A DNA stretch of 64,000 bases, taken from NCBI GenBank assembly GCA_964564435.1, contig CAZMAT010000003.1, forward strand, positions 96,451 to 160,450, read 5' to 3'. The number at the start of each line of letters is the position of its first letter. The first letter of the stretch is position 1. Below the pieces are notes generated by a model. It had not been told where the DNA came from and did not search any database. It worked only from the letters and a program-made list of their open reading frames with translations. Shown in pieces: positions 41,514 to 57,370 of the stretch. Made by a program: the position numbers and the translations under genes. This DNA is from an uncultured bacterium. GTDB lineage: Bacteria; Fermentibacterota; Fermentibacteria; Fermentibacterales; Fermentibacteraceae.

Positions 41514-43211
41514 CTATAGCCCGCCGTCCTCCACCGAGTCAAGCCATGCCGCGACCGGGCCGATCGTCGCTCCCACCGCTCCGTCCGCGAACGGGTTCCG
41601 CAGCCCCGTGGCGGACAGGAGCTCCGTGAACGAGCGGCTGCCGCCCAGGTCGCAGAGCCCGGTGTAGGCTCCCATGGCTGTGTCGCGTCCGGCCCGCGCC
41701 CTTCCCCAGAACTCGAACGCGCACACCTGGGCGAGCGTGTAGTCGATGTAGTAGAAGGGATCCTCGAAGATGTGGCCCTGCCTGAACCAGAAGCCCCCGT
41801 TCTCGAGGAAGCTGTCGCCGTCGTAGTCGCGCCAGGGCAGGTACCTGCGCTCGATCCCCCTCCAGGCCGCCCGCCTCTCCGACGGCGAGGCCGACGGATT
41901 GCCGTAAACCCGGTGCTGGTACTCGTCGACGGCGGCGCCGTAGGGGATGAACAGGACCGCGCCAGAGAGATGCGCGAACCTGTACTTGTCGGCGTCCCCC
42001 CCGAAGAACCGGTCCATCCAGGGCCAGGCCAGGAACTCCATGCTCATGGAGTGTATCTCGCATGCCTCGAGGGTGGGCGAGAGGTACTCGGGCACCTCGA
42101 AGCCCCTCGAACGATATGCCTGGAAGGCGTGCCCGGCTTCGTGCGTCAGAACGTCGACGTCGCCGCTCGTCCCGTTGAAGTTGGAGAAGATGAAGGGCGC
42201 CCCCTCGGTTGCGATGTACGAGCAGTAGCCGCCTCCGGCCTTGCCGCTCCTTGTCTCGAGGTCCATCAGCTCCCTCTCGACCATGAAGTCGAAGAACTCC
42301 TTCGTGGCGGGGGACATCTCGGAGAACAGGTCCCTGCCGCGGTCGAGTATCCATGACGGACCGCCACCGGGCACGGGATTGCCCGACGGGAACTCGAAGC
42401 TCTCGTCGAAGAACTTGAGGGACGTCAGGCCGATGCGAGCGGCCTGCCTCTTCCTCAGGGCCGCCGCCAGAGGCACGATCGTGCCGAGCACCTGTCCCCT
42501 GTAGCCGGCCACCATCGCGGCGTCGTAGTCGGACCTTCCAAGCCGCGCGTACGCAAGGGGGACGAAGCCGGGGAAGCCGAGCCTCCTGGCGATGCCGTCC
42601 CGGAGGTGCACCAGCTTGTCGTAGATGCCGTCGAACTCCTCGATGTGGGTCGAATAGAAGGAGCTGACCGCCTCGGTGGCGTCCCGCCTCACACCGCGAT
42701 CCTTGGATTCGATGAAGGGAACCATCTGGGGCAGGTTGCGCACCTCGCCCATGAAGTCGATCCGGGCGCCCGCCTTGAGCTTGACATACTCGCTGGCGAG
42801 CCTGTTCTCGGCCTGGAGGTCGCCCAGCACCTCGGGGCTGAAGGTCGAAAGCTGGAGCTCGGCGAGACGGAAGAGCTGAGGACCCCGTCTGCGTTCCAGG
42901 TCGGGCCTGAACCTCGACGAGACGAGCGCGGCATAGAACCGGCTCTTGATGCCTTCGTATACGGGCATGAGTTCGTCGGCCGCGTCGTTCTCCGCGTCGT
43001 AGAAGGCATCGGCGGTGTCGATGGTGTGCCTGATCCGCCCGATGGCGACCATCGACTCGAACCCGTTGCGCTCCAGGTCGATCTCGGCCATGAGCCCGTC
43101 CTGGACTCCCGCCGAGGATGCACTCGCGAACCGGGTCACCAGATCGTCCATCCTGGCTTCGAAGGCATCCCTGTCGGGTCTCCTGTACTCGAAGTCGACG
43201 AACCGCTTCAT
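41514..43211 (-). CDS. pepF: oligoendopeptidase F (M3B family)
   Basis: 565 aa with the HEAGHA zinc motif and PepF-type N-terminus (FEYRRPDRDAFE). GGAGG RBS. Confidence 0.85.
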   Translation of the reverse strand: MKRFVDFEYRRPDRDAFEARMDDLVTRFASASSAGVQDGLMAEIDLERNGFESMVAIGRIRHTIDTADAFYDAENDAADELMPVYEGIKSRFYAALVSSRFRPDLERRRGPQLFRLAELQLSTFSPEVLGDLQAENRLASEYVKLKAGARIDFMGEVRNLPQMVPFIESKDRGVRRDATEAVSSFYSTHIEEFDGIYDKLVHLRDGIARRLGFPGFVPLAYARLGRSDYDAAMVAGYRGQVLGTIVPLAAALRKRQAARIGLTSLKFFDESFEFPSGNPVPGGGPSWILDRGRDLFSEMSPATKEFFDFMVERELMDLETRSGKAGGGYCSYIATEGAPFIFSNFNGTSGDVDVLTHEAGHAFQAYRSRGFEVPEYLSPTLEACEIHSMSMEFLAWPWMDRFFGGDADKYRFAHLSGAVLFIPYGAAVDEYQHRVYGNPSASPSERRAAWRGIERRYLPWRDYDGDSFLENGGFWFRQGHIFEDPFYYIDYTLAQVCAFEFWGRARAGRDTAMGAYTGLCDLGGSRSFTELLSATGLRNPFADGAVGATIGPVAAWLDSVEDGGL

Positions 43212-43350
43212 GACAATCCTCCGTCTCCATTTCCGCCATGCCCGGCGGCAATGGATGATACTCGAAGCGCGGAAGCGGTCAACGATATGCTGGCAGGCCG
43301 CCTCCCCGGAATCGTATCTTCCCGCTTACGCTCTGGAGCAGGGAGGTCTC

Positions 43351-45528
43351 ATGCCCGCACTCACGCTCTCCCTGGTCTGCGCGGCGGCTCTCGGAACTCC
43401 CGAGCTCCGCGCGACGAGGGTCGAAGAAGCCCCCTCAGTGGACGGCCGCCTGGACGAAGCCGTCTGGGCCCTGGCCGGGCCGGTGCCCTGCCTCTTCACA
43501 CAGTACGATCCCGAGAACGGCGCTCCCATGTCCGTGGAGACCGTGATCTCCATCCTTTACGACGACGAGGCTGTCTACTTCGGCTTCGAGCTGTCGGATC
43601 CCGATCCCGCGGGGATGATGGAGGCCCTCTGCCCGAGGGACGACTACGCCACGGGCGAGTGGATCGCCGTGCTCCTGGACACCTGGGGCGACGGCCGGGA
43701 GGCGTCGAGCTTCGAGGTCAGCCTGGCCAACTCGCAGCTCGATTCGAGGATAAGCCCGTTCGGCAACTGGGACTACAGCTGGGATGCGGTATGGAAGAGC
43801 GGCACCTGCCGCACTGACAGCGGCTGGTCGGCCGAGATCGCAATTCCCTTCAGCTGCCTGCGCTTCTCAGGGTCGGAAGGGGAGCAGCCCTGGACCGTCA
43901 ATTTCCAGAGGATCAGAGGCGCGACCAGGGAGAACGGCTGGTTCGTGCTGTCCGATACACAGCAGATGGCCCGGCTGGAGACATTCGCCCCCATCCGCGG
44001 CATGTCGGGGGTCGACCGCTCGCTGGGCATCGAGTTCCGTCCGTACGGGTCGGCGAGGCTGCTGAGGACTGCCGAGGCGGACTCGTGGAACTCCGATCCG
44101 GATGCCGGACTGGACGTCAAGATAGGGATCTCCAGCGGAGTAGCGCTGGATCTCACCGTACTCCCCGACTTCGGACAGGTCGAGGCCGACGAGGCGGAGA
44201 TGAATCTCTCGCACTTCGAGCTCTTCCTCGACGAGCGCAGGCCGTTCTTCATGGAGTCGGAGGACATCTTCGAGATGCCGTTCCACATGTTCTACTCCAG
44301 GCGGATAGGCGCCGCCGCCCCCAACGGCGAGGTCACCCCTATAGCCGGCGGGTTCAAGCTTTCCGGCAACCTCGGCGGCGGGTACAGGTTCGGCCTCCTC
44401 GACGCGGTCACCTCGTCGGTCTCGGAGGACTCCGTCACCATCGAGCCTGCGGCCAACTACTCGATCCTCAGGGCGATGCGTGAATCAGGCTCCTACGACT
44501 ACGTCGGCGTCGCGGCGGTCGACCGCTATTCGTGGGCCCAGGACGGCATCCCCGCGGCCGAGAGTCGCGCGTTCGCCGTGGACGGCAGCATCCTGATCCC
44601 CGGCAACCATCTCCTGCACGGGGAGGTCGCGGGCTCCTCGGGCACCGGCCTCGAGAGCGACGGAGCTTACGAGATCTCGATGAGCAGGGTGAGGAGCACG
44701 TTCACGTATGACGGCGGCTTCTCGTACGTCGGGGAGGACTTCGACGTCAACGCCACGGGCTTCACGACCCAGACCGGCTACTGGGACGGATGGGCCAGCG
44801 CCTACCGCTCGCTCGCACCGGGAGGTTTCATAAGCAGGGCCGGCTACGGCCTCTCGGCCTACTACGCGGAGCTGGACAGCGGTGAGATCACAAGCAGGAA
44901 CATCTCCGCAGACGCCGACGCAAGCCTGCCGAGCGGAGCGAACTTCGGAGGAGGCGCCGGACTCGACGGGCGCACGTTCGACCGGTACGAGGGCCCTTCG
45001 GGGCGCTGGTACGACGGCACTGCATCCGTGTACGCCTATGCCGGCACGGGCAGGTTCCATGGCATGAGCCTCTCAGCCGATGCGGGCACCGGAGGGTACT
45101 GCAACGGCGGCAGCTACGTCGACTGCGGCCTGCATTACTCGATCAGGCCATCCGAGCCGCTCGTCCTCTCGCTCGAGGGCGACTGGTACAGGACCGAAGG
45201 CGCGGACAGGTACAACTGGGAGGCCGAAGAGTGGGACGTCAGGGACACGGACTGGCGGTCGCTGGTCTTCAGGGCCGGGTACATGTTCGGCCCCGACATG
45301 GACGTCAGGCTGTTCTCCCAGCTCTCGGAGTTCGAGTCGGACTTCGCGCTGACGGGGGAGACGGAGAGCGGGGAGCTCGCCGCCAACATGCTCTTCTCCT
45401 GGCGCTACAGGCCCGGCAGCATGCTGTACCTGCTCGGGGAGAACCGGTTCGAGAAGGAGGCCGACGGCGGGTTCGGCTCCCCGGACCTGGGCCTCTATGC
45501 GAAGCTGACCTGGTTCCTCCCCGTCTAG
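43351..45528 (+). CDS. secreted DUF5916-like protein with N-terminal CBM9-like domain
   Basis: Signal peptide MPALTLSLVCAAALG. VDGRLDEAVWA...FTQYDPENGAPMSVETVISILYDDEAVYFGFELSDPDP resembles the carbohydrate-binding family-9-like fold. GGGAGG RBS before ATG 43351; the track ORF is extended from 43015. Confidence 0.55.
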   Translation: MPALTLSLVCAAALGTPELRATRVEEAPSVDGRLDEAVWALAGPVPCLFTQYDPENGAPMSVETVISILYDDEAVYFGFELSDPDPAGMMEALCPRDDYATGEWIAVLLDTWGDGREASSFEVSLANSQLDSRISPFGNWDYSWDAVWKSGTCRTDSGWSAEIAIPFSCLRFSGSEGEQPWTVNFQRIRGATRENGWFVLSDTQQMARLETFAPIRGMSGVDRSLGIEFRPYGSARLLRTAEADSWNSDPDAGLDVKIGISSGVALDLTVLPDFGQVEADEAEMNLSHFELFLDERRPFFMESEDIFEMPFHMFYSRRIGAAAPNGEVTPIAGGFKLSGNLGGGYRFGLLDAVTSSVSEDSVTIEPAANYSILRAMRESGSYDYVGVAAVDRYSWAQDGIPAAESRAFAVDGSILIPGNHLLHGEVAGSSGTGLESDGAYEISMSRVRSTFTYDGGFSYVGEDFDVNATGFTTQTGYWDGWASAYRSLAPGGFISRAGYGLSAYYAELDSGEITSRNISADADASLPSGANFGGGAGLDGRTFDRYEGPSGRWYDGTASVYAYAGTGRFHGMSLSADAGTGGYCNGGSYVDCGLHYSIRPSEPLVLSLEGDWYRTEGADRYNWEAEEWDVRDTDWRSLVFRAGYMFGPDMDVRLFSQLSEFESDFALTGETESGELAANMLFSWRYRPGSMLYLLGENRFEKEADGGFGSPDLGLYAKLTWFLPV

Positions 45529-45753: not shown

Positions 45754-45844
45754 TGGCGGAGGGGGTGGGATTCGAACCCACGGACCCCACTAGGGAGTCA
45801 ACGGTTTTCGAGACCGCCCCGATCGACCTCTCCGGCACCCCTCC
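45754..45844 (-). tRNA. tRNA-Ser (anticodon CGA)
   Basis: 91-nt reverse-strand cloverleaf: acceptor GGAGGGG/CCCCTCC, anticodon loop CTCGAAA, long variable arm, T-loop TTCGAAT, encoded CCA. Closely resembles E. coli tRNA-Ser. Confidence 0.85.
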
Positions 45845-46019: not shown

Positions 46020-46826
46020 ATGCACCGCATGATACTGGTCGCCTCCGTGATCCTCGCCGCGGCCTGCGCCTGCCTCAGTGCCGGCGACGGAAGCGGGCCC
46101 GCTCCGAACTTCACTTCGACCCTCCTGGTGGACACCGGCTACACGCCCTATTCCGGCATCTCCTGGAACAGGGGCGAGTATCCCGTCTTCGTCCTGCACT
46201 GGACCCCGTCGGAAGAGGCCGATCACTACGAAGTCCGCGTCTCGACGGACCGCATCGACGAATCGAACTGGGACGTCGCCGTGCCGGTGGACACCGTGTC
46301 GGGCGGCCAGGATTCCTGCTGGGTCTCCCTCGATCCCGTCGTCTTCGAGAACACCTGCATCGGCTGCGGCCTCTGCGTCGATGCCTGCCCCCAGAACGCG
46401 ATGACCCTGGTCGGCGGACGCGCGGTGATAAACCCCGATTCGTGCACGTCCTGCGGCCAGTGCGTGCTGGTCTGCCCGGTGAATGCGATCACCGATACGA
46501 AGTACGACACCTGGTATTACTTCGCTATCCGCGCCTACTCGGCTTCGGGCGCCCCGTCCGAGGATGTCGTCTGCACCGCAGACGCCTACAGGATACGGTA
46601 CTTCGACGACATCTCGCGCTGCCAGCACTGCAACAGCGAAGGAACGTCCACCTGCTATGCCGTCATCAACACCCCGCCCTGCCCCGTGGACGCGATCTAC
46701 TGGGACGAGGACTTCTACATCTACATCGACACCACGAAGTGCATCAGCTGTGGCATCTGCTTCGAGCACTGCCGGACCGACGGCCTCTACTCCATAAGCA
46801 ACTACGTGGAGTCGTCCGCACCGTAG
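46020..46826 (+). CDS. lipoprotein with two 2[4Fe-4S] ferredoxin-type domains
   Basis: MHRMILVASVILAAACACLSAG signal and lipobox. Four CxxCxxCxxxCP clusters (CIGCGLCVDACP, CTSCGQCVLVCP, CQHCNSEGTSTC, CISCGICFEHC). GGAGGA RBS. Confidence 0.65.
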   Translation: MHRMILVASVILAAACACLSAGDGSGPAPNFTSTLLVDTGYTPYSGISWNRGEYPVFVLHWTPSEEADHYEVRVSTDRIDESNWDVAVPVDTVSGGQDSCWVSLDPVVFENTCIGCGLCVDACPQNAMTLVGGRAVINPDSCTSCGQCVLVCPVNAITDTKYDTWYYFAIRAYSASGAPSEDVVCTADAYRIRYFDDISRCQHCNSEGTSTCYAVINTPPCPVDAIYWDEDFYIYIDTTKCISCGICFEHCRTDGLYSISNYVESSAP

Positions 46827-46914
46827 ACGATGCATCCGGGATGCGGTTCCGCGGCCCGATCCCCGCGATCGGCCGCACCGGGCCGCCCGGGATGGGAAGG
46901 AACCGAAGGGAGAG

Positions 46915-47409
46915 ATGCTTGTGAGGTTCATCCCGATTACCGCCCTCGTCCTTGCCGCTGCAGCCTCCGGCGCAGGCATGGCCTTCTCGACCGATTCGGG
47001 CAAGCCGGTCGTCTCCTGGGATGCGGTCGACCCTTCATGGGATCATCTCGAGATCAGGATCTCCGCAACGCCCTTCGACGAAGCGGCTCCCGCGAAGGGC
47101 GCCGTAGTCTCCCTGATCGCCGTCGACAGCCTTTCAGGCGCGTTCCCGCTGGAAGCCGAACTCGCGGGCAGCTTCGCCGTCGAACCTGAGATCTGCATCG
47201 GCTGCGGCCTCTGCGTGTCGGCATGCCCCGTCGATGCCATCACGCTGGTCGAAGGCAAAGCCCTCGTCGACCCGGCGACCTGCATAGCCTGCGGGCTCTG
47301 CGCCTCCTCGTGCCCGGTCTCGGCCATCCTCGCCCCGTCGGCATCCGCGCATTTCGCCCTGCTCGGAGTCGACGCCGGGGGTGCCGCCACCATGCTGGGG
47401 TCGATCTAG
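46915..47409 (+). CDS. signal-peptide-bearing 2[4Fe-4S] ferredoxin-domain protein
   Basis: MLVRFIPITALVLAAAASGAGMA N-terminus. CIGCGLCVSACP and CIACGLCASSCP motifs. Confidence 0.65.
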   Translation: MLVRFIPITALVLAAAASGAGMAFSTDSGKPVVSWDAVDPSWDHLEIRISATPFDEAAPAKGAVVSLIAVDSLSGAFPLEAELAGSFAVEPEICIGCGLCVSACPVDAITLVEGKALVDPATCIACGLCASSCPVSAILAPSASAHFALLGVDAGGAATMLGSI

Positions 47410-47643
47410 GTGCCGCTGCGCAGGTATCTACTGCCTGTGCTTGTGCTTGCGATCGCGGCGCTAGCCCTCGCCGGGACGAAGTACAGGATAGACCGTACGC
47501 GCTGCACGGGTTGCGGCGACTGCGACAGGATCTGCCCCGTGGATGCCGTCGAGATCGTGGACGGCTACTCGACCATCGACCCCGATGCCTGCATAGGCTG
47601 CGGCATGTGCCTGGGGGTGTGCAGCCATGACGCGGTACGCTAG
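47410..47643 (+). CDS. small signal-peptide-bearing 2[4Fe-4S] ferredoxin
   Basis: GTG start. MPLRRYLLPVLVLAIAALALAG (RR-containing n-region), then CTGCGDCDRICP and CIGCGMCLGVC. Confidence 0.6.
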   Translation: MPLRRYLLPVLVLAIAALALAGTKYRIDRTRCTGCGDCDRICPVDAVEIVDGYSTIDPDACIGCGMCLGVCSHDAVR

Positions 47644-47869
47644 CCTCGCGGGCCTGCTGATGCTGCTTCTCGCCGCTGCCTGCAGCGGTCCGTCGGACAC
47701 GACGCAGCTCGTGGTGGATCCGGACCTCTGCATCGGCTGCGGTGAATGCGAGGAAGTCTGCCCCTACGGTGCCGTTGAGGTCGTCGACGGCCATGCCGTG
47801 ATCGACCCCGCCCTCTGCCACTTCTGCCTGAGGTGCGTCGAGGAGTGTCCGAAGGGGGCGATCTACTGA
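47627..47869 (+). CDS. small lipoprotein-type 2[4Fe-4S] ferredoxin
   Basis: MTRYASLAGLLMLLLAAACSG lipobox, then CIGCGECEEVCP and CHFCLRCVEECP. Confidence 0.6.
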   Translation: MTRYASLAGLLMLLLAAACSGPSDTTQLVVDPDLCIGCGECEEVCPYGAVEVVDGHAVIDPALCHFCLRCVEECPKGAIY

Positions 47870-49074
47870 TGAAGAAGCTCTCTCTGATCCTGCTCGTGCT
47901 TTCCGCCGCCGCCTGGTCGGCTGCGCTGGAGCAGTTCGTATCCCTGTCGGTCGAATCCGACAGCCTCGGGGTCTCCCCCGGCCGCAGGCAGGCCCTGTGG
48001 AACGGCATGATCTCCGAGGATTCCTGGGGCGTCAGGGTCACCGACAGATATCTCGATGCCGACAGCGGCGGGCTCGTCCCCCGGCGCTTCCTGGGCAGGA
48101 ACGACCTGCTGGTGGATGGTGACGCCAGATTCGGCGCCCTCACCGTCAGCCCCGGCTTCAGATGGAACACCGCCGCGGGCGACGGCCTCGACTTCATCCT
48201 GCCCGACCAGCAGGGCACGGTGCTCGACCGCTCCTACACCAGGCCCGGGCTCGGCCTCGGTGTCTCGCTGCCCCACGGGTTCGGCGCGTTCGTCGAGGGC
48301 AGCCTCGTGGAGCGCAGCCTCGAGTACCCCGACGGTTCCTCCCTCGGCTGGTCCGGCCAGGGCGCCGAGGGCTACGTCGAGTGGGACGCCCCGGGCCTCT
48401 TCTGGGCCAGGGCCGGAGGCTCCTTCCGCAAGCACTCGAGCGACGACATCGGGTTCGATACCGACTGGTCCGAAGTCGGCGCAGCCGTGGGCATCCGAAC
48501 CACCGTGCTGCCCGCAAGGGTCCAGCTCGTCGGCCAGGCCGAGTTCGGCTCCCTTTCGGGGGAGGACTACCTGGGGGGCGACCTGGGCGAGAGGGCTTCG
48601 CTCCGGCTGCGCGCCGTCAGGTCCTTCACTCCCGGGATGGCGCTGGACATGACAGTGTTCTCGTCTCTAGACCATCGCGACGGGGCCTGGTACAGGGCTG
48701 CCTCATCGGGTGCCGCGAGGCTTGTCCTGACGCGCGGGAGGCCCGGGGAGATCCCCAGCCAGCTCGTGCTGGGGGGGCAGGTGACGTCCTCGTCGTTCAC
48801 GACCGCGCGCTTCGAGGCCTCCGGCAGGCTCCACCTGGTCGAGGGGCTGTCCACGCTGCTCTCGGCCACGGCCCGCAGGATCCCGACAACCGTCGCGGGC
48901 GCCGGGCCCGGACGCGACTGGGTGACCCTCGGCGCCGGACTCGAATACAGGATATCCACCCTCGCCGTCGTCTGGGCGAAGGTGCAGCAGGAACTGACGA
49001 TACTGAACGACACCGAGGACTGGACGAGGCTGGACGCCGGGATCCAGTTCTGGCCGCCTTCCATCAGTATCTGA
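47869..49074 (+). CDS. outer-membrane beta-barrel protein (putative porin)
   Basis: MKKLSLILLVLSAAAWSA signal and ~16 amphipathic beta-strand segments. ATG overlaps the TGA of the preceding ferredoxin gene. Confidence 0.5.
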   Translation: MKKLSLILLVLSAAAWSAALEQFVSLSVESDSLGVSPGRRQALWNGMISEDSWGVRVTDRYLDADSGGLVPRRFLGRNDLLVDGDARFGALTVSPGFRWNTAAGDGLDFILPDQQGTVLDRSYTRPGLGLGVSLPHGFGAFVEGSLVERSLEYPDGSSLGWSGQGAEGYVEWDAPGLFWARAGGSFRKHSSDDIGFDTDWSEVGAAVGIRTTVLPARVQLVGQAEFGSLSGEDYLGGDLGERASLRLRAVRSFTPGMALDMTVFSSLDHRDGAWYRAASSGAARLVLTRGRPGEIPSQLVLGGQVTSSSFTTARFEASGRLHLVEGLSTLLSATARRIPTTVAGAGPGRDWVTLGAGLEYRISTLAVVWAKVQQELTILNDTEDWTRLDAGIQFWPPSISI

Positions 49075-49126
49075 ATCACCTCTCCAGGGGTCCCGGCACC
49101 GGCCGGGGCCCCGTGGGAAGCCGCCG

Positions 49127-50257
49127 ATGACACTCGACCCCCTGATCCGCGGAGCCGCCCTCGGCCTCGCCACCGGAACGGCCTGCCTGGCCTCCTGCGG
49201 CCCGGTCTACGGGGCCTACCTGCTCTCCGAGAAGAGGTCGGGTCTCGAGTCGCTGCGCGTGCTCCTCGAGCTCAACCTGGGAAGGTTCCTTTCCTACGCC
49301 GCCTTCGGAGCCCTTTTCGGCCTGCTGGGAGGGTCGCTCCCAGTCTCGATAAGGGGGCCCCTGGCGGCGGCTGGATACATCCTCTTCTCCGTCTATCTCC
49401 TTCTCTCGGTCGTCCGTGCCAGGAAGTCGTGCGGCGGCGGATGCTCAACTTCCAAGCTAACCCGCTTCACCCGGAGTCCGCTGCTGCTGGGCGTGCTCAC
49501 CGGCCTCTCGGTGTGCCCCTCGTTCCTGATCGCGGTAACAGGCGCGTTCGAATCCAGCGGTCCACTGAGCGGAGCTCTCCTCTTCTCGGGATTCTTCGCG
49601 GGGACGACCGTATACATGCTTCCTTTCGCAGTCCTGGGACTTTTCACCAGGAAGGCCTGGTTCACCACGATCGCGAGGGTTCTTGCAGTCATCGTCTCGG
49701 TCTACTTCCTGGCCGTCGGGGTGCGCATGGCCCTGGCTCTGATCAATCCCGGCGTATCGCAGACCACCGGCACCGCGGGCGCTCCCTCCGACGGTGAAGG
49801 GCCGGCATACGCGGCGCTCGAGGAGGATACGCTCTATTTCGTGGGCATACCGGGCGACCCGGCGGATCACGCACAGGATCTCGCCGCGTTCTTCGGCTCG
49901 CAGGAAGGCCCCGGAGCCGTCTTCGTCGCCGTCGCCCCCGCCGATCCGACTTCGTTCGCCGGGCGCATCCCCGAGCTTTCCTCGGTCATCGTGCCCTGGT
50001 GGGTCGACCCGAGGAGCGGGATCGCCCTCGAGCCATGGCAGGCCGAGTTCGCATGGGTCGTGGAAGCTCGCAGATACAGGGCCTTCGCGGTCGAGTACGA
50101 GCCGTGGTGCGAGGACAGGGCCGAGACGATCCGGTCGTTCCTCGACAGATACAGCTTCAGTGTGGAGCCCGATTCCGGATTCACTTTCCTGATGCAGAAC
50201 ACCCTCGAGTGTCCGCCGGATTCCTGCGCGACGTGCCCCCTCGGGGCGTTCGAGTAG
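49127..50257 (+). CDS. polytopic membrane protein with Cys motifs and a C-terminal soluble domain ending CPLGAFE
   Basis: About 6 TM helices with TACLASCGP and SCGGGCS motifs. C-terminal ...ECPPDSCATCPLGAFE shares the CPLGAF motif with the NapH-like protein encoded at 51529-52968. Confidence 0.45.
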   Translation: MTLDPLIRGAALGLATGTACLASCGPVYGAYLLSEKRSGLESLRVLLELNLGRFLSYAAFGALFGLLGGSLPVSIRGPLAAAGYILFSVYLLLSVVRARKSCGGGCSTSKLTRFTRSPLLLGVLTGLSVCPSFLIAVTGAFESSGPLSGALLFSGFFAGTTVYMLPFAVLGLFTRKAWFTTIARVLAVIVSVYFLAVGVRMALALINPGVSQTTGTAGAPSDGEGPAYAALEEDTLYFVGIPGDPADHAQDLAAFFGSQEGPGAVFVAVAPADPTSFAGRIPELSSVIVPWWVDPRSGIALEPWQAEFAWVVEARRYRAFAVEYEPWCEDRAETIRSFLDRYSFSVEPDSGFTFLMQNTLECPPDSCATCPLGAFE

Positions 50258-50304
50258 CCTGACCCGCGCCTGACGCGGGGCTCGGCAGTTTCATGGAGGA
50301 AGAG

Positions 50305-51507
50305 ATGCCCACGGATTTCAGTGCTGGATATGCCGGACCCAGGGTCAAATCCGACTGCCTGGTCACCTTCGCGCCCGGAGAGGGCGCCCTGGAAGTCTCG
50401 ATCACTGGAGAGGCGGATCACGCCCCCCTCGAAGCGGCCATCAGGGCCGTCGCCGACAGGCTGGGTGTCGGCGGCAGGGTGACCGTGAAGGATTCCGGGG
50501 CCCTTCCCTTCGTGGCGGCAGCCCGTTTCGAGGCTGCGGCGAGGAGGGCGCTCGGCGGCAGCCTGACCCCCCTTCCACCTGCGGTGGTCTTCCAGCCGTC
50601 GCCCAGGGTACGCCCCCGCAGATCGAGGCTGTACCTTCCCGGCAACCGCCCGGAGTTCCTGCCCAAGGCCGTCTCGTCGGGCGCGGACGGCGTGATACTG
50701 GACCTCGAGGACAGCGTCTCCCCCGACAGGAAGTTCGAGGCCAGGATACTGGTGGCCCACGCCCTCGCATCCATGGACTTCGGCGGGGTGGAGATCATGG
50801 TGCGCATCAACCAGGGGGCCGAGGGCGACGAGGACCTCGCCTGGATCATCCCGCAGAGGGTTCAGCACGTGCTTGTGCCCAAGGTCGAGACCCCCTCGAG
50901 GATCTCGGACGTCCGCGCACTTTCGGAGAAGATCGCGAAGCGGTGCCACAGGCCTGGGCTGCCGTGGTTCATGCCCATCATCGAGAGCCCCCTCGGGATC
51001 CTCTCTGCGCTGGACATCGCCCGCGCAGTGCCCGAAACCGCCGCCCTCACCCTGGGCCTGCAGGACCTGACCGCCGAGCTTGGCGTGAGGCCCACGCCGG
51101 GCGGACGAGAGAGCTTCTTCTCGCGCAGCATGATCGTGCTCGCCGCCAGGGCGGCCGGGCTCCAGCCGATCGATACCGTCTACGCCGACGTGAAGAACGA
51201 GGAGGGGCTCAGGGCATCCATCTCAGAGGCCCGCGAACTGGGATTCATCGGCAAGGGATGCGTCCATCCCGGGCAGGTCGCTGCCATCAACCAGGGTTTC
51301 ATGCCCGACGCCGAGTCGATCGAGTACGCGAAGAAGGTCGTGCTCGCCATGGAGGAGGCGCAGAGCCGCGGGCTGGGCGCGGTGGCCCTGGGCAGCAAGA
51401 TGATCGACCCCGCCGTCGCGAGGCAGGCCGAGGCCACCGTAGCGGAAGCCGTCATGTTCGGGATCATCCCCGAAGGCTGGAGGGATGCCGCGGGGGCGGG
51501 TGAATAG
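50305..51507 (+). CDS. citrate lyase acyl-carrier (CitD-like) fused to citrate lyase beta / citryl-CoA lyase (CitE, HpcH/HpaI family)
   Basis: N-terminal ~90 aa are CitD-like (GYAGPRVKSDCLVTFAPGEGALEVSITG...). The remainder is CitE-like (ILDLEDSV, MVRINQG, FIGKGCVHPGQV). GGAGGA RBS before ATG 50305. Confidence 0.7.
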   Translation: MPTDFSAGYAGPRVKSDCLVTFAPGEGALEVSITGEADHAPLEAAIRAVADRLGVGGRVTVKDSGALPFVAAARFEAAARRALGGSLTPLPPAVVFQPSPRVRPRRSRLYLPGNRPEFLPKAVSSGADGVILDLEDSVSPDRKFEARILVAHALASMDFGGVEIMVRINQGAEGDEDLAWIIPQRVQHVLVPKVETPSRISDVRALSEKIAKRCHRPGLPWFMPIIESPLGILSALDIARAVPETAALTLGLQDLTAELGVRPTPGGRESFFSRSMIVLAARAAGLQPIDTVYADVKNEEGLRASISEARELGFIGKGCVHPGQVAAINQGFMPDAESIEYAKKVVLAMEEAQSRGLGAVALGSKMIDPAVARQAEATVAEAVMFGIIPEGWRDAAGAGE

Positions 51508-51528
51508 AACCGGGCGGCCGGGGCCGCC

Positions 51529-52968
51529 CTAGCCCTCCTTCGTGCCGATCTCGCAGCTCCCGGAGGAAGGCTCGCCGGGCATCCCGCAGGACTGCCCCCT
51601 GCGCCCGGTGAGGCGGCACAGTTTCGTCCACAGGCCGGCCCGGCAGGCCAGCCCCAGCACGAACCCGTAGAAGCACAGGTACCGGCAGAAGAACCTGCCC
51701 CAGAGGATCGAAAGGACTGCCGCGGCCAGGCCGAGCACCAGGTTTCCCGCGAGGAACAGGGTGAACACAGCCCTGAACGGATCCACCTCGCAGAACAGGG
51801 CGGCCCAGGGCACGTCGAGGATGCCTCTCCAGGCCAGGACGACAGCCGCGCAGAAGAGCACGAACAGCACCGTCCTCGCTCCGAGCAGGATCCGGTCGAG
51901 CTTCCGGCCGGGCTGGGGGAGGCGCAGGATGTCTAGCTTCCAGAGGATCTCCTGGAAGGCCCCCATCGGGCAGACCCATCCGCAGTAGACCCTTCCGAAG
52001 AAGAGCGCGTGGACGACCGGCAGAGCCAGCAGGAGGATGCCGGCGAGCCCGAGGAAGGATATCGCCGTGCCGCCGAGGGCGTACTGGAACGCGCCCAGGG
52101 GGCAGAAGCATCCCTGGACCACGAAACCCAGAAGCAGGAGGCTCAGGGACAGCACGACGAGCCGTGTAGCCCGTGCCTTCCTCCTAGTCTTCCTCCCGCC
52201 CCGCAGCTTCCTCGATGCGATGGTCGCGAAGGCGAGGAGCACCGCCGTGATGCAGAGGATGACCAACGTCCTCGTGCGACCGGTCGAGGGGTTGCCGCAG
52301 GTGTCGTCCGTCCATCTCCCCGCCCAGTGAGGGCAGAGCTGCCTCTCGTACGGGCAGGCCGCCGCAGGCGGGAGGCCGCGAGGGCAGCCCAGCGAGACGA
52401 AGGCGGGCGGAGCGCCGGCGGAATCCTGCAGCGCCGACGCGGTGGTATCGGCCGTCAGCGGCCCCGGGTTGTCGCAGCGGCCGTCGGCGCCTTCATCCCT
52501 GTAGAGGGCGCATGACGGCGCTTCCGCGTAGCAGGCCTGCTCGGGGGTGTAGCCGAGGGGGCAGGAGACCACGACGCAGTCGGAGTCGTCGGTGGTCTGG
52601 CCCTGACTGGCGCTGTCGGGAGCCGTGACGCCGATGGAATCGGACTGTACTTCCTGCTGGACAACCGGATCGGGCGGGGTCGAATCCGGGCCCGTGTCAG
52701 GCCCCGTATCCGGATCGACCAGGGTTGTGTCAGCCGTGGAGACGATAGTGTCGGCCGGAGTGACATCGGGCTCGACCGCTTCCGTATCGGGCTCCGCCAC
52801 CGACGGCTGGGGGCCCGGATTGTCGCACAGGCCGTCTCCGTCGGAGTCGGTGAACAGCCCGCAGGTGGGGGCCGATTCGGGGCAGGCGTTCCCGGGCGGG
52901 AAGCCCAGCGGGCATGTCGCCAGAGCCGCCGATGTCAGGATGAATGCAAACCAGAACGAGGTTCTCAT
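51529..52968 (-). CDS. NapH/MauN-family membrane polyferredoxin-like protein with periplasmic Cys-rich Asp-rich repeats
   Basis: Signal peptide, then three repeats (CPLGxxPxxACxxxxPxC...DxDGDGxCDNPGP). TM domain carries CFCPLGAFQY and CGWVCPMGAFQE motifs diagnostic of the NapH/NosR/MauN Fe-S membrane family. Confidence 0.65.
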   Translation of the reverse strand: MRTSFWFAFILTSAALATCPLGFPPGNACPESAPTCGLFTDSDGDGLCDNPGPQPSVAEPDTEAVEPDVTPADTIVSTADTTLVDPDTGPDTGPDSTPPDPVVQQEVQSDSIGVTAPDSASQGQTTDDSDCVVVSCPLGYTPEQACYAEAPSCALYRDEGADGRCDNPGPLTADTTASALQDSAGAPPAFVSLGCPRGLPPAAACPYERQLCPHWAGRWTDDTCGNPSTGRTRTLVILCITAVLLAFATIASRKLRGGRKTRRKARATRLVVLSLSLLLLGFVVQGCFCPLGAFQYALGGTAISFLGLAGILLLALPVVHALFFGRVYCGWVCPMGAFQEILWKLDILRLPQPGRKLDRILLGARTVLFVLFCAAVVLAWRGILDVPWAALFCEVDPFRAVFTLFLAGNLVLGLAAAVLSILWGRFFCRYLCFYGFVLGLACRAGLWTKLCRLTGRRGQSCGMPGEPSSGSCEIGTKEG

Positions 52969-53034: not shown

Positions 53035-53658
53035 CTATTCGAAAATGTACTTGATGGAGGCAAAGGTCTCGTTCTCGAGATCGTTCGTCCCTGCGAGTAT
53101 CCAGTGGGGGACAGTCGACTCGAGCCCGCCGGTCGGCTGGCCGTCCGGGCTGCAGAAGACCGCGCGTCCGTCGGCACCGTTCCAGTTGTACACATAGACC
53201 GACTGACTGTCCGGGGTCGCGGTCCACTCTATGTCTATCAGCAGATTGTTGCTCCCGTTGTAGAAGAAGGGGGTGTCCAGGTCAGTGCTGAACCACTGGT
53301 CCGGGCCGAGACCCGACAGCGTGTACGTAGACCTGCTGAACACAAGCGTCTTCGACGACGGGACGTAGTTGTTCTCGAAGTTCGTGCCAAGAGCATCGAG
53401 GGTCGTGTAGCCCATGTAGATCTTGAAGTTGTTGTAGGAGCCGTGGTCTTCGCCGAACGGCGCACGCTTCCACATGAGATCCTGGATCGTGATCGCCGTG
53501 CCTATCTCGCTGTCGAGCACTACCACCTGGTAGCGCATTCCGGCAGGATATCAACCACCGCAGAAAGGCGTACTGCCGAGCCCTACGTCGCTGCCTATCT
53601 CGACGTCGGCCATCGCAGCCGTCGAAAGCAGCAGTGCCGCTGATATCAGTCTGTTCAT
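53035..53658 (-). CDS. secreted protein interrupted by in-frame TGA (signal peptide-CGG-TGA-mature domain): candidate selenoprotein or pseudogene
   Basis: ATG 53658 has a strong GGAAGGAGGAAGG RBS. Reads MNRLISAALLLSTAAMADVEIGSDVGLGSTPFCGG, then TGA at 53551-53553, then the same frame continues YPAGMRYQVVVLDSEIG... to the stop at 53035. An 8-bp stem with AGGU loop lies 14 nt downstream of the UGA. Local GC (~57%) is lower than background. Confidence 0.4.
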
Positions 53659-53767: not shown

Positions 53768-53845
53768 GGTCCGGTAGTTCAATTTGGTTAGAGCACCGCC
53801 CTGTCACGGCGGAAGTTGCGGGTTCGAGTCCCGTCCGGACCGCCA
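53768..53845 (+). tRNA. tRNA-Asp (anticodon GTC)
   Basis: 78 nt: acceptor GGTCCGG/CCGGACC, anticodon stem CCGCC/GGCGG with loop CTGTCAC, T-arm GCGGG-TTCGAGT-CCCGT, discriminator G, encoded CCA. Confidence 0.9.
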
Positions 53846-53862: not shown

Positions 53863-54420
53863 AAGTGGCAGCGTCGCCAGCACTGTTTGCGAAGCAAACG
53901 TGCGAGAGACCATCAATCCAGCCTGTCACTCCTGTTCGATTTCGTGTGTCTGACTACTGCTTGCGCCGCAGCATTGCTCGCACTTCTTTCGAGGCTCTTC
54001 AGCTCGCACTGCGGGTCCTTCCGGGGGGCGTTGCCTCCCGTCCCCCTCATTTCGCGAAGCGAAATGAGAAACAAGCGGCAGCACGGTTCGCGAAGCGAAC
54101 CTGCGAGAGCGATCCAGCTGATCTGGTGGCACGCGTACTCGCAGTTTTCTGCGAAAACTGCTGTTACGCTACCTATCGATTCCGCCCTGCGAAATCGATG
54201 AAATTAGAAGGAAGCGGCAGCACGGTTCGCGAAGCGAACCTGCGAGAGCGATCCAGCTGATCTGGTGGCACGCGTACTCGCAGTTTGCTGCGAAAACTGC
54301 TGTTACGCTACCTATCGATTCCGCCCCGCGAAATCGATGAAATAAGAAGGAAGCGGCAGCACGGTTCGCGAAGCGAACCTGCGAAAGCGATCAAGCCTGT
54401 CCTCGAGCCCATGCGGTTCT
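53863..54420. repeat. 139-bp tandem repeat (about 2.3 near-identical copies plus one degenerate copy), each unit carrying three small hairpins
   Basis: Units begin at 54073, 54212 and 54351 (period 139) with only 3-4 mismatches. Internal hairpins are ggttcgc-gaa-gcgaacc, gcagtttt-ctgcg-aaaactgc and tcgatt...aatcga. A degenerate copy at 53863-54072 directly follows tRNA-Asp. Confidence 0.8.
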
Positions 54421-54429
54421 TCACCGTTA

Positions 54430-57120
54430 AGTGGGGCACAGGTCCTGTTCAGCAGCACCGTGCTCTCACCCTGAGTCTGTAGTTCTCGAAGCCCTTGAAG
54501 CCGTTGATGCTCCTGGAGATCTGATTTATCAGCTTGTTTCTGCTTCCGCAAAACAAGCTGGCTGCTATCGGCTCATCACTCTGTGTATCCACGCTGGGTA
54601 AGCTGATAATGTACGTCTACAGAAAATCTGCCCGCTTGTAGTCAACTACACTGTGAAGTCTTGATTGTCGACCCATCAGAGAATCCATTGCGCTTCTACA
54701 AGCAACAGGTTCAAGATCATTTCTCTGTAAGCAACGACGAGTTCTCCATCGATCCTGTGTTTCGAATCTGACGGACGCGGAAGCGTAAAAGGGCTCTAAG
54801 TCAATGTAGCAATCGACATTGGGCAACTACTTATATGCGGTATGATGCCGTGCTGGTCAGTATTCGACAGGCCATACCCATGCGGCTTCTTCGGACATTT
54901 GGTTGACATGGTTGCTCCCGCATACTAGTCATCGATCACTACTCACACTGAGTAACAACAGTTGCGGCATCTTCAGGGGGGTTGACGATGGGCATCGCCT
55001 TGGTTGCGCTTATCGTTACCGGAACACTGAACCTCACCAGTTATAACGTATGGAAACCGGCTTCGTGGAACAGGGCAGACGCTCGGGATCTGGTGATATC
55101 ATCTGTAACGGGTAATCCGGTTGTTGCAGGAGGCAGATGAAACATAGTCGGAGGCTCCGGTGGAGCCGATGAAGGAGAGTTCCGGGTCTGGGAATTTGAT
55201 CTTGCATCGCTTGGAACAACACCTCCTGCTGGTAGTGAGCCCTATCTATGGACATACGCGTATGCTGGAAGCACTGACTACTCTTCTCAGAAAGCACATG
55301 CACTTACTGCGTACGGATCCACGGAAGAAAACGAGAGCTACCTCGTAGCCGGCCATGACCACTACTGGCTCGGTCCGGTGCCGCACCTGCTCATATCGGA
55401 CTTGTATGTAGCAGGTGGATCTTCTCCCATTGGATCAGACCATCAATTCGAACGACCTGGTTCTGTCATGCCCGAGGCGAATGACATAGTCTACATTGAT
55501 GACATCAGTTCATTCGTCACCGGCTCTACCGGTGCAGGAATGGCTACCTGCGGAACCTATCGCCCAGGCGAAGGGTATCCCAAGCAGCCTTTCCTTCAGA
55601 TATCGGACATCGATGACTATTCGACGGTCTTCCCTGGTCTTTCGTCATCATCCTGGGGAAGAAGCCTCGGAGCAGTAGTATACGACTCGGAAAACAGCAT
55701 CATCGTTGCAGCCGGCATGTCTACGGGTTCGCCTTCAACGAATAGAATAGATAGAATAGTGATCTGCGGCTATAACCGATTCATAGGAGCCGTCGAGAAC
55801 TCCTTCTCGCTTGGCAGCTGCTTCTTAAGTGAAAACGAAGTCGAAGCATACAGACCGCCTCTTGTGGATCTCGGCGGAGGATTCTATCTGTATTTGACCA
55901 GCATACAAGGGCCGGTGGACATCTCGGGTTACTCATGGCACGGAGTTATCGCTACATTGTGGAAGTACAGCAATAATGGCGGAGTCGCGTCGATCAACTG
56001 CGTATCAAGTGACATCTGCAGGATACAGAACATCGCCGGCTACAGCAAGTTCTCCGACTTCATACCATTTTCGATAGGGCTTACCGAGAGCTTTGGAAGT
56101 TCCGGCGGTGACGCTGTCGTGCTGATTAACTCTAGATACACAGATGCACGGGAAGAGATCGACCAGTCCCGCCTTGTTGTTGGTACCGTGAATGTTGTTA
56201 TGGGATCTTCGCCAACAGTTGATATTGCAGACGGAGTCAATGATTTCCAAACGATACGGATACTACCAGAGCAGGAGTTCCAATCGGGTTGCGCGTACCA
56301 GGCCATGCTGGGGAACGAATTTGTCTTTACCGATTGCAGCAGCAGTGAGGCTTTTTCTGGAACCGGAGTAGGTGTTTTCTACAAGAGCCTGACATGTCAT
56401 GATTACAAGAAGATCTGGCTCTTCCAGATATCGCCGTCGAACGCAGAGGCGTCGATTGTACCGATGACGGAGCGAGAAGACCAGACCTATCCAGCGTCAG
56501 AAGTGAGCTTCCATCTGACCTCTAATCCGGTAGTGGATGGCGTTGTCGAAATTGCCACGAATGGGACGATTTCGACAGGTACAGAGGCTTTGTTGTTTGA
56601 TGTTTCGGGGAGGATGATCGGTCGAACCAGCCCCGATGTCTCTGGCACTTTCAGAATCGCAAGCGTTCATGGATGCCCTCTGCCAACTGGTGTCTATACT
56701 GCCGTGGTTACCCAGAACGGGGAGGCGTGCTTCGTTAGTACATGCGCTGTCATTGACTAAATGACATAGTGCTGCGACCAGCTTTGTGGGCTGCGCCTGC
56801 GCAGCCCACAACCTTATTGCTAACTAGTGTGGACGACGCATTACAAAGAGACAAGGTTCAATATAAGCTAGATTGTGATATTCAACCGCTTCATAGTACA
56901 ATGGGTGAGTTTCCGGTGTTGGAGTCATTTTCTCGACAGCAGAGTTCTTCCCTTATGCCTTATCTCAGTCCAGATGCTCTAGCACTCAACCTTTGCTATC
57001 CCAGCTGCCAGCGGCCTTATCGATTCTCCTAACTAGAACGCTTTGATGCTCCAAGCCTGACCGTGCTGAACCATTTACAGAAACCCCAGCAGACTAACAT
57101 TCCAACAGGTGATCCATATC
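54430..57120. mobile_element. low-GC (~50%) islet adjacent to tRNA-Asp, bracketed by copies of the hairpin-repeat family, no recognisable mobility genes
   Basis: Sharp compositional drop against the ~68% GC background. Located 3' of a tRNA gene, with repeat copies on both borders (53863-54420 and 57125-57370). A single large ORF lies inside. Confidence 0.6.
54988..56760 (+). CDS. islet-encoded Ser/Gly-rich secreted protein with T9SS-type C-terminal sorting domain, containing an in-frame TGA at 55138
   Basis: ATG 54988 has an AGGGGGG RBS. Reads MGIALVALIVTGTLNL... (hydrophobic N-terminus) for 50 codons, TGA, then the same frame continues 540 codons. The C-terminus (NPVVDGVVEIATNG...ALLFDVSGRMIG...GVYTAVVTQNGEACFV) matches the Por/T9SS CTD pattern. 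A stem-loop with GGU-containing loop lies 12 nt after the UGA. The track reports only the 55378..56760 part. Confidence 0.5.
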
Positions 57121-57124
57121 AAGT

Positions 57125-57370
57125 GTGATCCTTGCATCAACGACCCTTCACTCACGCATACGTGGATTGATGATGTGGCCTGCACGGTTCTCACGCGGAG
57201 AACGTGCGAAAGCGAACAGGTTGCCCAGATACTCAAGCCGGAATACCCGTGCACTCGTGCCTGACGGAAACCTTGATCCGCCCGAGGTGGATCAAGGCAC
57301 GCCCTGTCGCGGTTTCCCTTCGGGAAACCACTGTCGGGCTACCCATCGATTCCGCTTCGCGAAATCGATG
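57125..57370. repeat. right-border copy of the hairpin-repeat family
   Basis: cgcggtttccc-ttcg-ggaaaccac tgtcgggctacccatcgattccgcttcgcgaaatcgatg parallels the 139-bp unit (gcagttttctgcgaaaactgctgttacgctacctatcgattccgccctgcgaaatcgatg). The upstream part has gcacggttc...gcgaaagcgaac similarity. Confidence 0.55.

Follow-up and report, generated by a model that had tools for sequence, protein, structure and literature searches.

A cluster of nine genes in the 64,000-nucleotide stretch of DNA analysed here (the window) encodes four ferredoxins with export signals (Fdx1 to Fdx4), a predicted outer-membrane β-barrel, a membrane protein of the DsbD_2 family, a CitD-CitE fusion, a NapH/NosR-like membrane iron-sulfur (Fe-S) protein and a selenoprotein, p167. 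The host is Candidatus Fermentibacter. Judging from the sequences, this cluster may provide a cytochrome-free electron route through the envelope and across the outer membrane, built from Fe-S proteins and analogous to the porin-cytochrome conduits, a proposal that we hold to be about evenly balanced between right and wrong. To our knowledge, all established bacterial electron routes across the outer membrane use multihaem cytochromes; the haem motif CxxCH is absent from all nine cluster proteins. An original prediction, made from the letters of this DNA, had suggested an extracytoplasmic or outer-membrane-associated electron-transfer module. Every test that we ran agrees with such a location, and electron transfer is still something that we infer.

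Organization and conservation of the cluster

The ferredoxin genes lie on the forward strand at 46020-46826 (Fdx1, 268 amino acids (aa)), 46915-47409 (Fdx2, 164 aa), 47410-47643 (Fdx3, 77 aa, with a GTG start) and 47627-47869 (Fdx4, 80 aa), where the original prediction had placed them. They are followed on the same strand by the genes for the barrel (47869-49074, 401 aa) and for the DsbD_2 protein (49127-50257, 376 aa). With G+C contents at third codon positions of 0.81-0.88 in a genome of 66% G+C, all genes of the cluster look coding. The GTG of Fdx3 abuts the stop codon of Fdx2 (TAG-GTG), Fdx3 and Fdx4 overlap by 17 nucleotides, and the Fdx4 stop and the barrel start overlap in the sequence TGATG. 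These junctions couple the translation of Fdx2, Fdx3, Fdx4 and the barrel, which bears out the coupling of the barrel that had been proposed from the TGATG.

A scan of one genome per species yielded 70 loci, of which 56 are from Fermentibacterota. The order of the genes is always Fdx1-Fdx2-Fdx3-Fdx4-barrel-DsbD_2, with protein identities of 25-60%, and about 50 Fermentibacterota genomes at species level share this colinear core, because of which the arrangement is far more than chance would give. Full-length Fdx3, Fdx4 and barrel genes were each present in 51-52 of the 56 Fermentibacterota loci, Fdx2 in 49 and Fdx1 in 44, the missing genes falling mostly where contigs end. In Aegiribacteria, all five of these genes overlap. 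Exact copies of the cluster occur on at least 23 metagenome contigs, and its homologues bear the names Candidatus Fermentibacter, Aegiribacteria and Sabulitectum. The NapH-like gene is found 0-5 kilobases (kb) downstream of the core on the opposite strand, and is followed by one to three copies of p167 in nearly every locus whose contig extends there.

The same core was observed at three Cloacimonadota loci from metagenome-assembled genomes (MAGs), L072, L073 and L077. Each comprises several ferredoxins with a signal peptide or lipoprotein signal, a 377-400-aa signal-peptide protein in the barrel slot, and a DsbD_2 protein that is 42% identical to that of the window across the transmembrane (TM) domain. 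Two independent MAGs encode a 178-aa ferredoxin (L072:6841-7377 and L073:510-1049) that consists of a signal peptide, a 2x[4Fe-4S] domain and a Por_Secre_tail domain (PF18962, 58 bits), the sorting domain of type IX secretion (T9SS). This sorting domain is absent from the window ferredoxins and from all examined Fermentibacterota ferredoxins. The third locus encodes an 820-aa lipoprotein (L077:4809-7271) with an N-terminal ferredoxin domain, several fibronectin-III (fn3) domains (PF00041, 103.6 bits) and a weak second Fer4 match near its C-terminus; a classical NapH-like gene (L077:4007-4792) lies directly upstream of it.

Four ferredoxins with conserved cluster motifs

All four ferredoxins match Pfam Fer4 families, with E-values of 1e-14 to 2e-23 and scores of 51-81.5 bits (Fdx1 81.5, Fdx2 60.2, Fdx3 51 and Fdx4 66.5) over a cut-off of 21.1 bits. 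Each harbors clostridial-type 2x[4Fe-4S] motifs, and by motif and Pfam score they belong to the bacterial-type 2x[4Fe-4S] ferredoxin domain, with about ten candidate [4Fe-4S] sites among them. Fdx1 and Fdx4 are lipoproteins, and Fdx2 and Fdx3 carry ordinary signal peptides. The original prediction described all four as a signal peptide followed directly by two cluster motifs, which holds for Fdx3 and Fdx4 only. In Fdx1 and Fdx2, a β-rich domain of about 80 aa precedes the Fe-S motifs, and Fdx1 contains three canonical CxxCxxCxxxC motifs and one variant, so that it may bind up to four clusters. The three motifs are found in 44 of 44 Fdx1 orthologues.

Fdx3 is composed of a signal peptide and a bare 2x[4Fe-4S] domain that spans about 55 aa, with both motifs in 51 of 51 orthologues, and Fdx4 is a lipoprotein with a bare 2x[4Fe-4S] domain. 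All eight Cys ligands are retained throughout the Fdx3 orthologues (51/51) and in 51 of the 52 Fdx4 orthologues. The best sequence matches of Fdx4 in the PDB are the polyferredoxins FwdF and MvhB (E-values of 1e-30 to 7e-28). In Fdx2, a signal peptide without lipobox and a β-rich N-terminal domain are followed by a 2x[4Fe-4S] domain, in which both motifs are canonical in 43 of 49 orthologues and one motif has CxxD in the other six. In six species (L020, L032, L037 and L062 among them), Asp stands for the second Cys of the first motif, which reads CIADGIC, CISDGIC or CIADNIC; in other ferredoxins, such a Cys-to-Asp change gives a [3Fe-4S] or Asp-ligated cluster.

The β-rich domain of Fdx1 might be fibronectin-III-like and interrupted by a 2x[4Fe-4S] domain, with a second, variant dicluster domain behind it, an arrangement that is suggestive only. 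With the ferredoxin insert deleted, the Fdx1 flanks match fn3 with E=0.001 and 19.7 bits, under the cut-off of 25. An fn3 identity of the Fdx1 and Fdx2 N-terminal domains was rejected, five other constructs being negative and the insert-deleted window Fdx1 below the Pfam cut-off.

Location of the Fe-S domains

Ferredoxins are normally cytoplasmic, and Fe-S proteins are generally assumed to need twin-arginine translocation (Tat) for their export because their clusters are inserted in the cytoplasm. The lipobox Cys is present in 44 of 44 Fdx1 orthologues, and a lipobox of the form L-x-[AGS]-C in 51 of 52 Fdx4 orthologues, so the two lipobox ferredoxins of the original prediction stand. N-terminal uncharged runs have median lengths of 15-22 residues in the ferredoxins (22 in Fdx2 and 18 in Fdx3) vs 18 in the signal peptide of the barrel. 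Both Fdx2 and Fdx3 have basic n-regions, with small residues at -3 and -1. The net charges that flank the Fdx3 hydrophobic segment are +2 on the N-terminal side and about 0 on the C-terminal side in most orthologues, which predicts an N-in, C-out orientation.

The original prediction had noted an RR-containing n-region, which the orthologues do not sustain as a conserved Tat motif. RR is present in the signal region of only 14 of 51 Fdx3, 2 of 44 Fdx1, 1 of 49 Fdx2 and 0 of 52 Fdx4 orthologues, the dibasic pair of the 51 Fdx3 sequences being RR in 14, RK in 13, KK in 12, KR in 2 and missing from 10. Tat export as a general feature of Fdx3 was rejected on this count.

The conserved export signals and gene neighbourhood, together with the T9SS and fn3 domains of the sister phylum, indicate that the Fe-S domains are extracytoplasmic, and a cytoplasmic location is very unlikely. 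The cytoplasm-facing anchors and the unconserved neighbourhood that would have spoken for the opposite were not observed; lipoboxes and synteny are both conserved. The domains may bind their clusters outside the cytoplasm, which is especially uncertain for proteins that are exported without a Tat signal.

The outer-membrane barrel

The barrel protein comprises 401 residues and about 20 strands, contains no Cys, has no plug and carries its own signal peptide. Its structure model matches outer-membrane barrels, MtrB among them, and supports the predicted barrel fold. According to the standard barrel-geometry formula, a 20-stranded barrel has an estimated C-alpha radius of about 18 Å, which would in principle be roomy enough for a 55-residue ferredoxin.

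Two membrane proteins at the inner membrane

The protein encoded at 49127-50257 matches PF13386 (DsbD_2) with 80.6 bits against a cut-off of 24.9, and has six TM segments. Among 14 sequences, residues C20, C24, C102, C106, C130-P131, C367 and C370 are invariant, and C362 is conserved in at least 90%. TM1 harbors the CxxxC motif (C20 and C24), with G25-P26, invariant in the 14 sequences; a CxGGC motif is localized in loop 3, which is strongly basic, and TM4 contains a Cys-Pro. Loops 1, 3 and 5 are basic, and under the positive-inside rule this would make the N-terminus and the tail of about 170 aa periplasmic. This C-terminal domain ends in C-x4-C-x2-C, and no thioredoxin signature, Pfam match or PDB sequence match was found for it. 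By Pfam score and the Cys residues of TM1 and TM4, the protein belongs to the DsbD-CcdA superfamily, and is a predicted CcdA/DsbD-like thiol-disulfide transporter. The CPLGAF motif that the original prediction saw echoed between the DsbD_2 tail and the NapH-like protein did not survive the comparison of 14 orthologues: only C-x4-C-x2-C is conserved, and the echo is a coincidence because its PLGAF part is genus-specific.

The NapH-like protein (51529-52968, - strand, 479 aa) matches PF12801 (Fer4_5) in two stretches, with 54.4 bits. It comprises, in this order, a signal peptide, periplasmic four-Cys repeats, a TM anchor, a very basic cytoplasmic loop and the Fer4_5 core. In an alignment of 18 orthologues the core motifs CFCP, CGWVCP, FC..DPF and FCRYLC are conserved, CFCP and CGWVCP in most of them. 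Of its former description as a NapH/MauN-like polyferredoxin, the Fer4_5 core and the likeness to NapH/NosR remain. The protein is not a polyferredoxin because the C-terminal 2x[4Fe-4S] domain is absent: no Fer4 match was found there, and the tail is short and unconserved in the 18 orthologues. It shares with the NapH/MauN family (TIGR02163) the membrane core with two CxxxCP (Fer4_5) motifs, and falls outside that family with 31 bits against a cut-off of 213.05. It likewise scores 22.8 against 234 for the NapH equivalog and 43 against 1000 for NosR, with no FMN_bind match.

The periplasmic repeats follow the pattern CPLG..C..C..D.DGD..CDNPGP. Where three had been counted in the window protein, two are canonical and the third is degenerate; relatives contain 0-4 by regular-expression search, and 1-4 in all but one. 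No Pfam model, including the TSP3 and EGF models that had been suggested for them, matched the repeats even at E<=10, and PDB sequence searches with the NapH-like and DsbD_2 proteins gave no match.

Pairings of the two membrane proteins occur, or are suggested, in other phyla as well. In Obscuribacterium magneticum (L079:7844-9609), a Pfam-confirmed NapH-like gene lies directly upstream of DsbD_2, an arrangement that occurs twice on one contig. In an acidobacterial locus (L081:9001-10811), motif and tblastn evidence places a NapH-type CxxxCP motif and a ferredoxin match downstream of DsbD_2, and in Elusimicrobia (L082:4422-5317) a ferredoxin match alone adjoins it. DsbD_2 and the NapH-like protein may thus form a wider two-gene membrane module, and they probably work together.

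Cloacimonadota loci without ferredoxin and barrel genes (L070:7186-7413, L071:4056-4283 and L074:3585-3971) contain a gene for a small Nfu-type (CGSCP) Fe-S carrier. Four genes downstream of it, beside an ATP-binding cassette (ABC) transporter, lies a DsbD_2 paralogue with the C-terminal domain.

A secreted selenoprotein beside the NapH-like gene

The gene for p167 (53035-53658, - strand, 207 aa) was overlooked in the original prediction. An upstream in-frame open reading frame (ORF) of 35 aa encodes a signal peptide, ends in TGA and precedes an ORF of '167 aa'. The junction reads STPFCGG-UGA-YPAGMRYQVVVL (codons ttc tgc ggt ggt TGA tat), and the UGA (53551-53553, - strand) is read as selenocysteine, with the motif P[FWL]C[GA]x-UGA conserved around it. 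In 48 of 48 copies from the phylum, an in-frame UGA lies within P[FWL]C[GA]x-UGA-xxx[LM]RYQVVVL, downstream of a signal peptide. The full-length protein would therefore consist of a signal peptide, PFCGG-U (CxxU) and a β-sandwich. In the structure model, the region that follows the UGA is a galactose-binding-like β-sandwich and not thioredoxin-like, with the CxxU on an N-terminal arm.

A hairpin resembling a selenocysteine insertion sequence (SECIS) was observed just past the UGA (53517-53536, - strand), with the arms GCGCUACC and GGUAGUGC of 8 base pairs around an AGGU loop; its 5' arm begins 14 nucleotides past the UGA. In the alignment, 91.9% of cells are paired, and one pair shows a double change from CG to UA in eleven sequences. 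None of 500 shuffles reached the observed covariation score, and slid registers scored far lower. The folding energy of the single sequence is unremarkable (z = -1.5), so that it is conservation and covariation that speak for the hairpin. A scan of 45.5-54.5 kb with Rfam returned the two tRNAs only, and no known RNA or SECIS family.

A hidden Markov model search of 1.84 billion representatives revealed homologues 200-207 aa long that carry a signal peptide and, at the selenocysteine position, CxxC (PFCGDC in P0147, P0176 and P0226; PFCGFC in P0160). By the usual criteria, p167 would represent a new family of secreted CxxU selenoproteins. Public records and gene calls break it up into one ORF of 35 aa and another of about 160-170 aa, or list the larger ORF alone as hypothetical, and Pfam and NCBIfam contain no model for it. 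A keyword search of a 2026 review of prokaryotic selenoproteins revealed nothing related to p167. The gene always adjoins the NapH-like gene, with one to three tandem paralogues per genome. SelA, SelB, SelD and tRNA-Sec are not encoded in the window, the tRNAs of which are tRNA-Ser(CGA) and tRNA-Asp only. Whatever the role of the ferredoxins, p167 adds an unannotated secreted selenoprotein family with CxxU on a carbohydrate-binding-like fold.

Comparison with known systems

Neither the cluster nor the selenoprotein is described in the open-access literature that was searched. Envelope electron conduits are already known; the new element, if the clusters are really present, would be extracytoplasmic Fe-S proteins on the general secretory (Sec), lipoprotein and T9SS routes. 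The known conduits of the porin-cytochrome type (MtrCAB of Shewanella, PioAB/MtoAB, and Pcc of Geobacter) use haem, whereas here the candidate [4Fe-4S] sites are spread over four small proteins. The Mtr-type barrel has 26 strands and about 650-700 aa, compared with about 20 strands and 401 aa here, and no sequence relationship was found between them. The complex and the direction of electron flow are putative here.

NapGH/NosGH and NosR are similar in combining a membrane protein that has two Fer4_5 stretches with periplasmic ferredoxins. NosR also shares the overall layout of a periplasmic N-terminal domain, a TM anchor and a NapH-like core. The NapH-like protein departs from NapGH and NosR in lacking a cytoplasmic 2x[4Fe-4S] domain at its C-terminus; its periplasmic part is made of novel four-Cys repeats where NosR has an FMN-binding domain, and the partner ferredoxins have no Tat signal where NapG has one.

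With DsbD, CcdA and ScsB, the DsbD_2 protein shares a TM domain of the PF13386 superfamily, the invariant Cys of TM1, the Cys-Pro of TM4 and a periplasmic Cys-bearing domain like the beta and gamma domains of DsbD. It differs from them by the additional CxGGC of a cytoplasmic loop and by a C-terminal domain without thioredoxin signature, and its neighbours are ferredoxins instead of DsbC, CcmG or cytochrome c maturation factors.

FwdF and MvhB, the nearest solved relatives of the Fdx4 domain, chain 2x[4Fe-4S] modules into a long wire in a comparable way. They are single cytoplasmic polypeptides of methanogens, whereas the modules here are exported as individual proteins that bear lipid anchors and β-sandwich domains. 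Finally, p167 resembles the known bacterial CxxU redox selenoproteins (thioredoxin-like, DsbA-like and AhpD-like, among others) in its CxxU, its CxxC homologues and the SECIS hairpin just past the UGA, and differs in a fold that is not thioredoxin-like and in a Sec-type signal peptide.

A possible electron route and its alternatives

The hosts are described as strict fermenters that have no respiratory chain and need an electron sink, in sulfidic, Fe(II)-rich habitats with sulfate reducers as partners (PMC5030696; bioRxiv 10.1101/146886). A quinol is an unlikely donor because the hosts are reported to have no respiratory chain. The DsbD_2 and NapH/NosR-like proteins might draw reducing power from the cytoplasm and pass it to the four exported ferredoxins with their roughly ten [4Fe-4S] sites, of which Fdx1 and Fdx4 would be lipid-anchored and Fdx2 and Fdx3 soluble. 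The barrel could either house Fdx3 or anchor or pass the lipoprotein ferredoxins. Fdx3 would be its natural occupant because it is the only bare module that is not lipidated, in which case Fdx1 and Fdx2 could lie outside, with Fdx4 on the periplasmic side. Electrons may then reach the outer cell face and pass there to an external acceptor, for example sulfur, polysulfide, Fe(III), humics or a partner in syntrophy; the CxxU selenoprotein would probably be an end-point or a branch of the route, in the periplasm or at the surface. In its strictest form this route would be a 'porin-ferredoxin' conduit, a wire across the outer membrane made only of [4Fe-4S] ferredoxin modules that are delivered by the Sec, lipoprotein and, in Cloacimonadota, T9SS routes. 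We consider this form possible and, on balance, doubtful. It would require Fe-S clusters to be assembled or inserted outside the cytoplasm, and they might perhaps self-assemble in the Fe(II)- and sulfide-rich anoxic habitats while DsbD_2 keeps the ligand thiols reduced.

Should electrons indeed leave the cell in this way, extracellular electron transfer would extend to organisms that now count as 'pure fermenters' without cytochromes. Obligate fermenters of two candidate phyla, both of which dominate anaerobic digesters and sulfidic sediments, could unload electrons onto minerals, sulfur and partner cells, with the selenoprotein as an associated reductase. Models of electron flow and syntrophy in digesters and seeps would change, and the assembly of Fe-S clusters outside the cytoplasm would become a concrete question.

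Several observations weigh against an electron route across the outer membrane. We know of no way in which proteins that travel by the Sec, lipoprotein or T9SS route are loaded with [4Fe-4S] clusters, and a twin-arginine motif is not conserved among the Fdx1-4 orthologues; this missing insertion route after Sec export is where any electron-transfer reading is weakest, and also what makes it most interesting. Signal peptides were judged from motifs, conservation and charge rules. The Fdx3 of Fermentibacter has a net charge of +3 after the hydrophobic segment, and a basic early mature region is unusual for Sec export. The barrels of Fermentibacterota and Cloacimonadota have no detectable sequence similarity (hhalign probability 2.5%) and agree in position, size and signal peptide only. 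The ferredoxin operon is tied to the NapH-like and selenoprotein pair by proximity alone, at 0-5 kb and on the opposite strand, and some Cloacimonadota have a DsbD_2 paralogue in an unrelated context.

The chain could instead be confined to the periplasm, as in NapGH, NosGH or NosR, and never cross the outer membrane: the ferredoxins would reduce a periplasmic enzyme or substrate, with the CxxU selenoprotein acting on polysulfide or disulfides for example, and the barrel would be a substrate channel. We regard this as unlikely, though as a serious contender. A NapH/NosR-like core and periplasmic ferredoxins are established as the parts of NapGH/NosGH, the selenoprotein gene is always beside the NapH-like gene, and no Fermentibacterota ferredoxin bears a T9SS tag. 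However, the start of the barrel gene overlaps a ferredoxin stop throughout the phylum, two of the four ferredoxins are lipoproteins, and among the Cloacimonadota ferredoxins one is T9SS-tagged and another is fused to fn3 stalk domains. A weaker lead in the same direction is given by acidic residues after the lipid-modified Cys of Fdx1, which we take to resemble those of surface lipoproteins in related phyla. If the exported domains carry no redox clusters at all, they could bind or nucleate iron, sulfide or thiophilic metals, for capture, detoxification or the delivery of clusters or iron, while DsbD_2 keeps thiols reduced or moves metal and the barrel is a pore for uptake or export. The lack of a known insertion route for Sec substrates and of a conserved Tat motif would then pose no difficulty, and Fe(II) and sulfide abound in the habitat. 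Moreover, a DsbD_2 paralogue lies four genes downstream of the Nfu-type Fe-S carrier gene in other Cloacimonadota, and the superfamily presumably also includes metal-ion transporters, which is a lead only. Such a role is nevertheless clearly improbable given the strict conservation, in about 50 species, of two CxxCxxCxxxCP motifs with their spacing, their Pro and an inter-motif length typical of electron transfer. In addition, the closest sequences are known electron wires, and the cluster has a NapH/NosR-like electron-transfer protein linked to it.

The last alternative keeps the ferredoxins in the cytoplasm, where such proteins normally reside, held on the inner membrane face by uncleaved N-terminal anchors and unrelated to the barrel and the other neighbours. 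Some gene calls place the Fdx3 start nine codons later, which removes its basic N-terminus, and the +3 charge past the hydrophobic segment of Fermentibacter Fdx3 points the same way. The nearly invariant lipobox Cys of Fdx1 and Fdx4, the N-in, C-out charges of most Fdx3 orthologues, the T9SS and fn3 domains on ferredoxins of the orthologous clusters, and the strict synteny and translational coupling with a barrel that bears a signal peptide all argue against it. We consider this alternative largely refuted, with next to no chance of being correct.

Other features of the locus

The nine genes are flanked by tRNA-Ser(CGA) (45754-45844, - strand) and tRNA-Asp (53768-53845). Among them, the CitD-CitE fusion gene (50305-51507, + strand, 400 aa) encodes an acyl carrier domain (PF06857) and a citrate-lyase beta/HpcH-type lyase domain (PF03328). 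It directly follows DsbD_2 in about three quarters of the Fermentibacterota loci, and is absent from the remainder and from Cloacimonadota. No CitF gene was found near it and nothing evident ties it to the redox genes; it is probably not part of the redox module. A GC-rich hairpin with seven G-C pairs (51512-51529), identified by consensus scan only, lies between the convergent CitD-CitE and NapH-like genes and is a possible terminator. In many Sabulitectum-like loci (L009:5123-6913, L028:11397-13175, L058:13008-14828 and others), a protein of about 600 aa with a T9SS-like C-terminal tail is encoded between the CitD-CitE fusion and the NapH-like gene, where the window has no counterpart.

A search of the remaining window for redox partners revealed only housekeeping genes (among them those for GlnA, IspG, RF-1, Rho, tRNA synthetases, GAPDH and a PPDK-like protein). 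A large DUF5916 protein (109 bits) is encoded at 43015-45528, directly upstream of tRNA-Ser; its true start is probably at about 43340. An M3 oligoendopeptidase-like gene (41514-43211), identified from its translation by eye, overlaps the longest DUF5916 ORF.

The G+C content of the window is 65-68% across most of its length. Just past tRNA-Asp, a tandem repeat of 139 nucleotides is present in about three copies (54061-54477), and related copies are localized about 3 kb away (57191-57370). They bracket a segment of low G+C (0.52-0.56 vs 0.66) that encodes a 460-aa protein (55378-56760) without Pfam match, the C-terminus of which resembles a secretion sorting tail by eye only. The segment between the repeats is possibly an inserted element.

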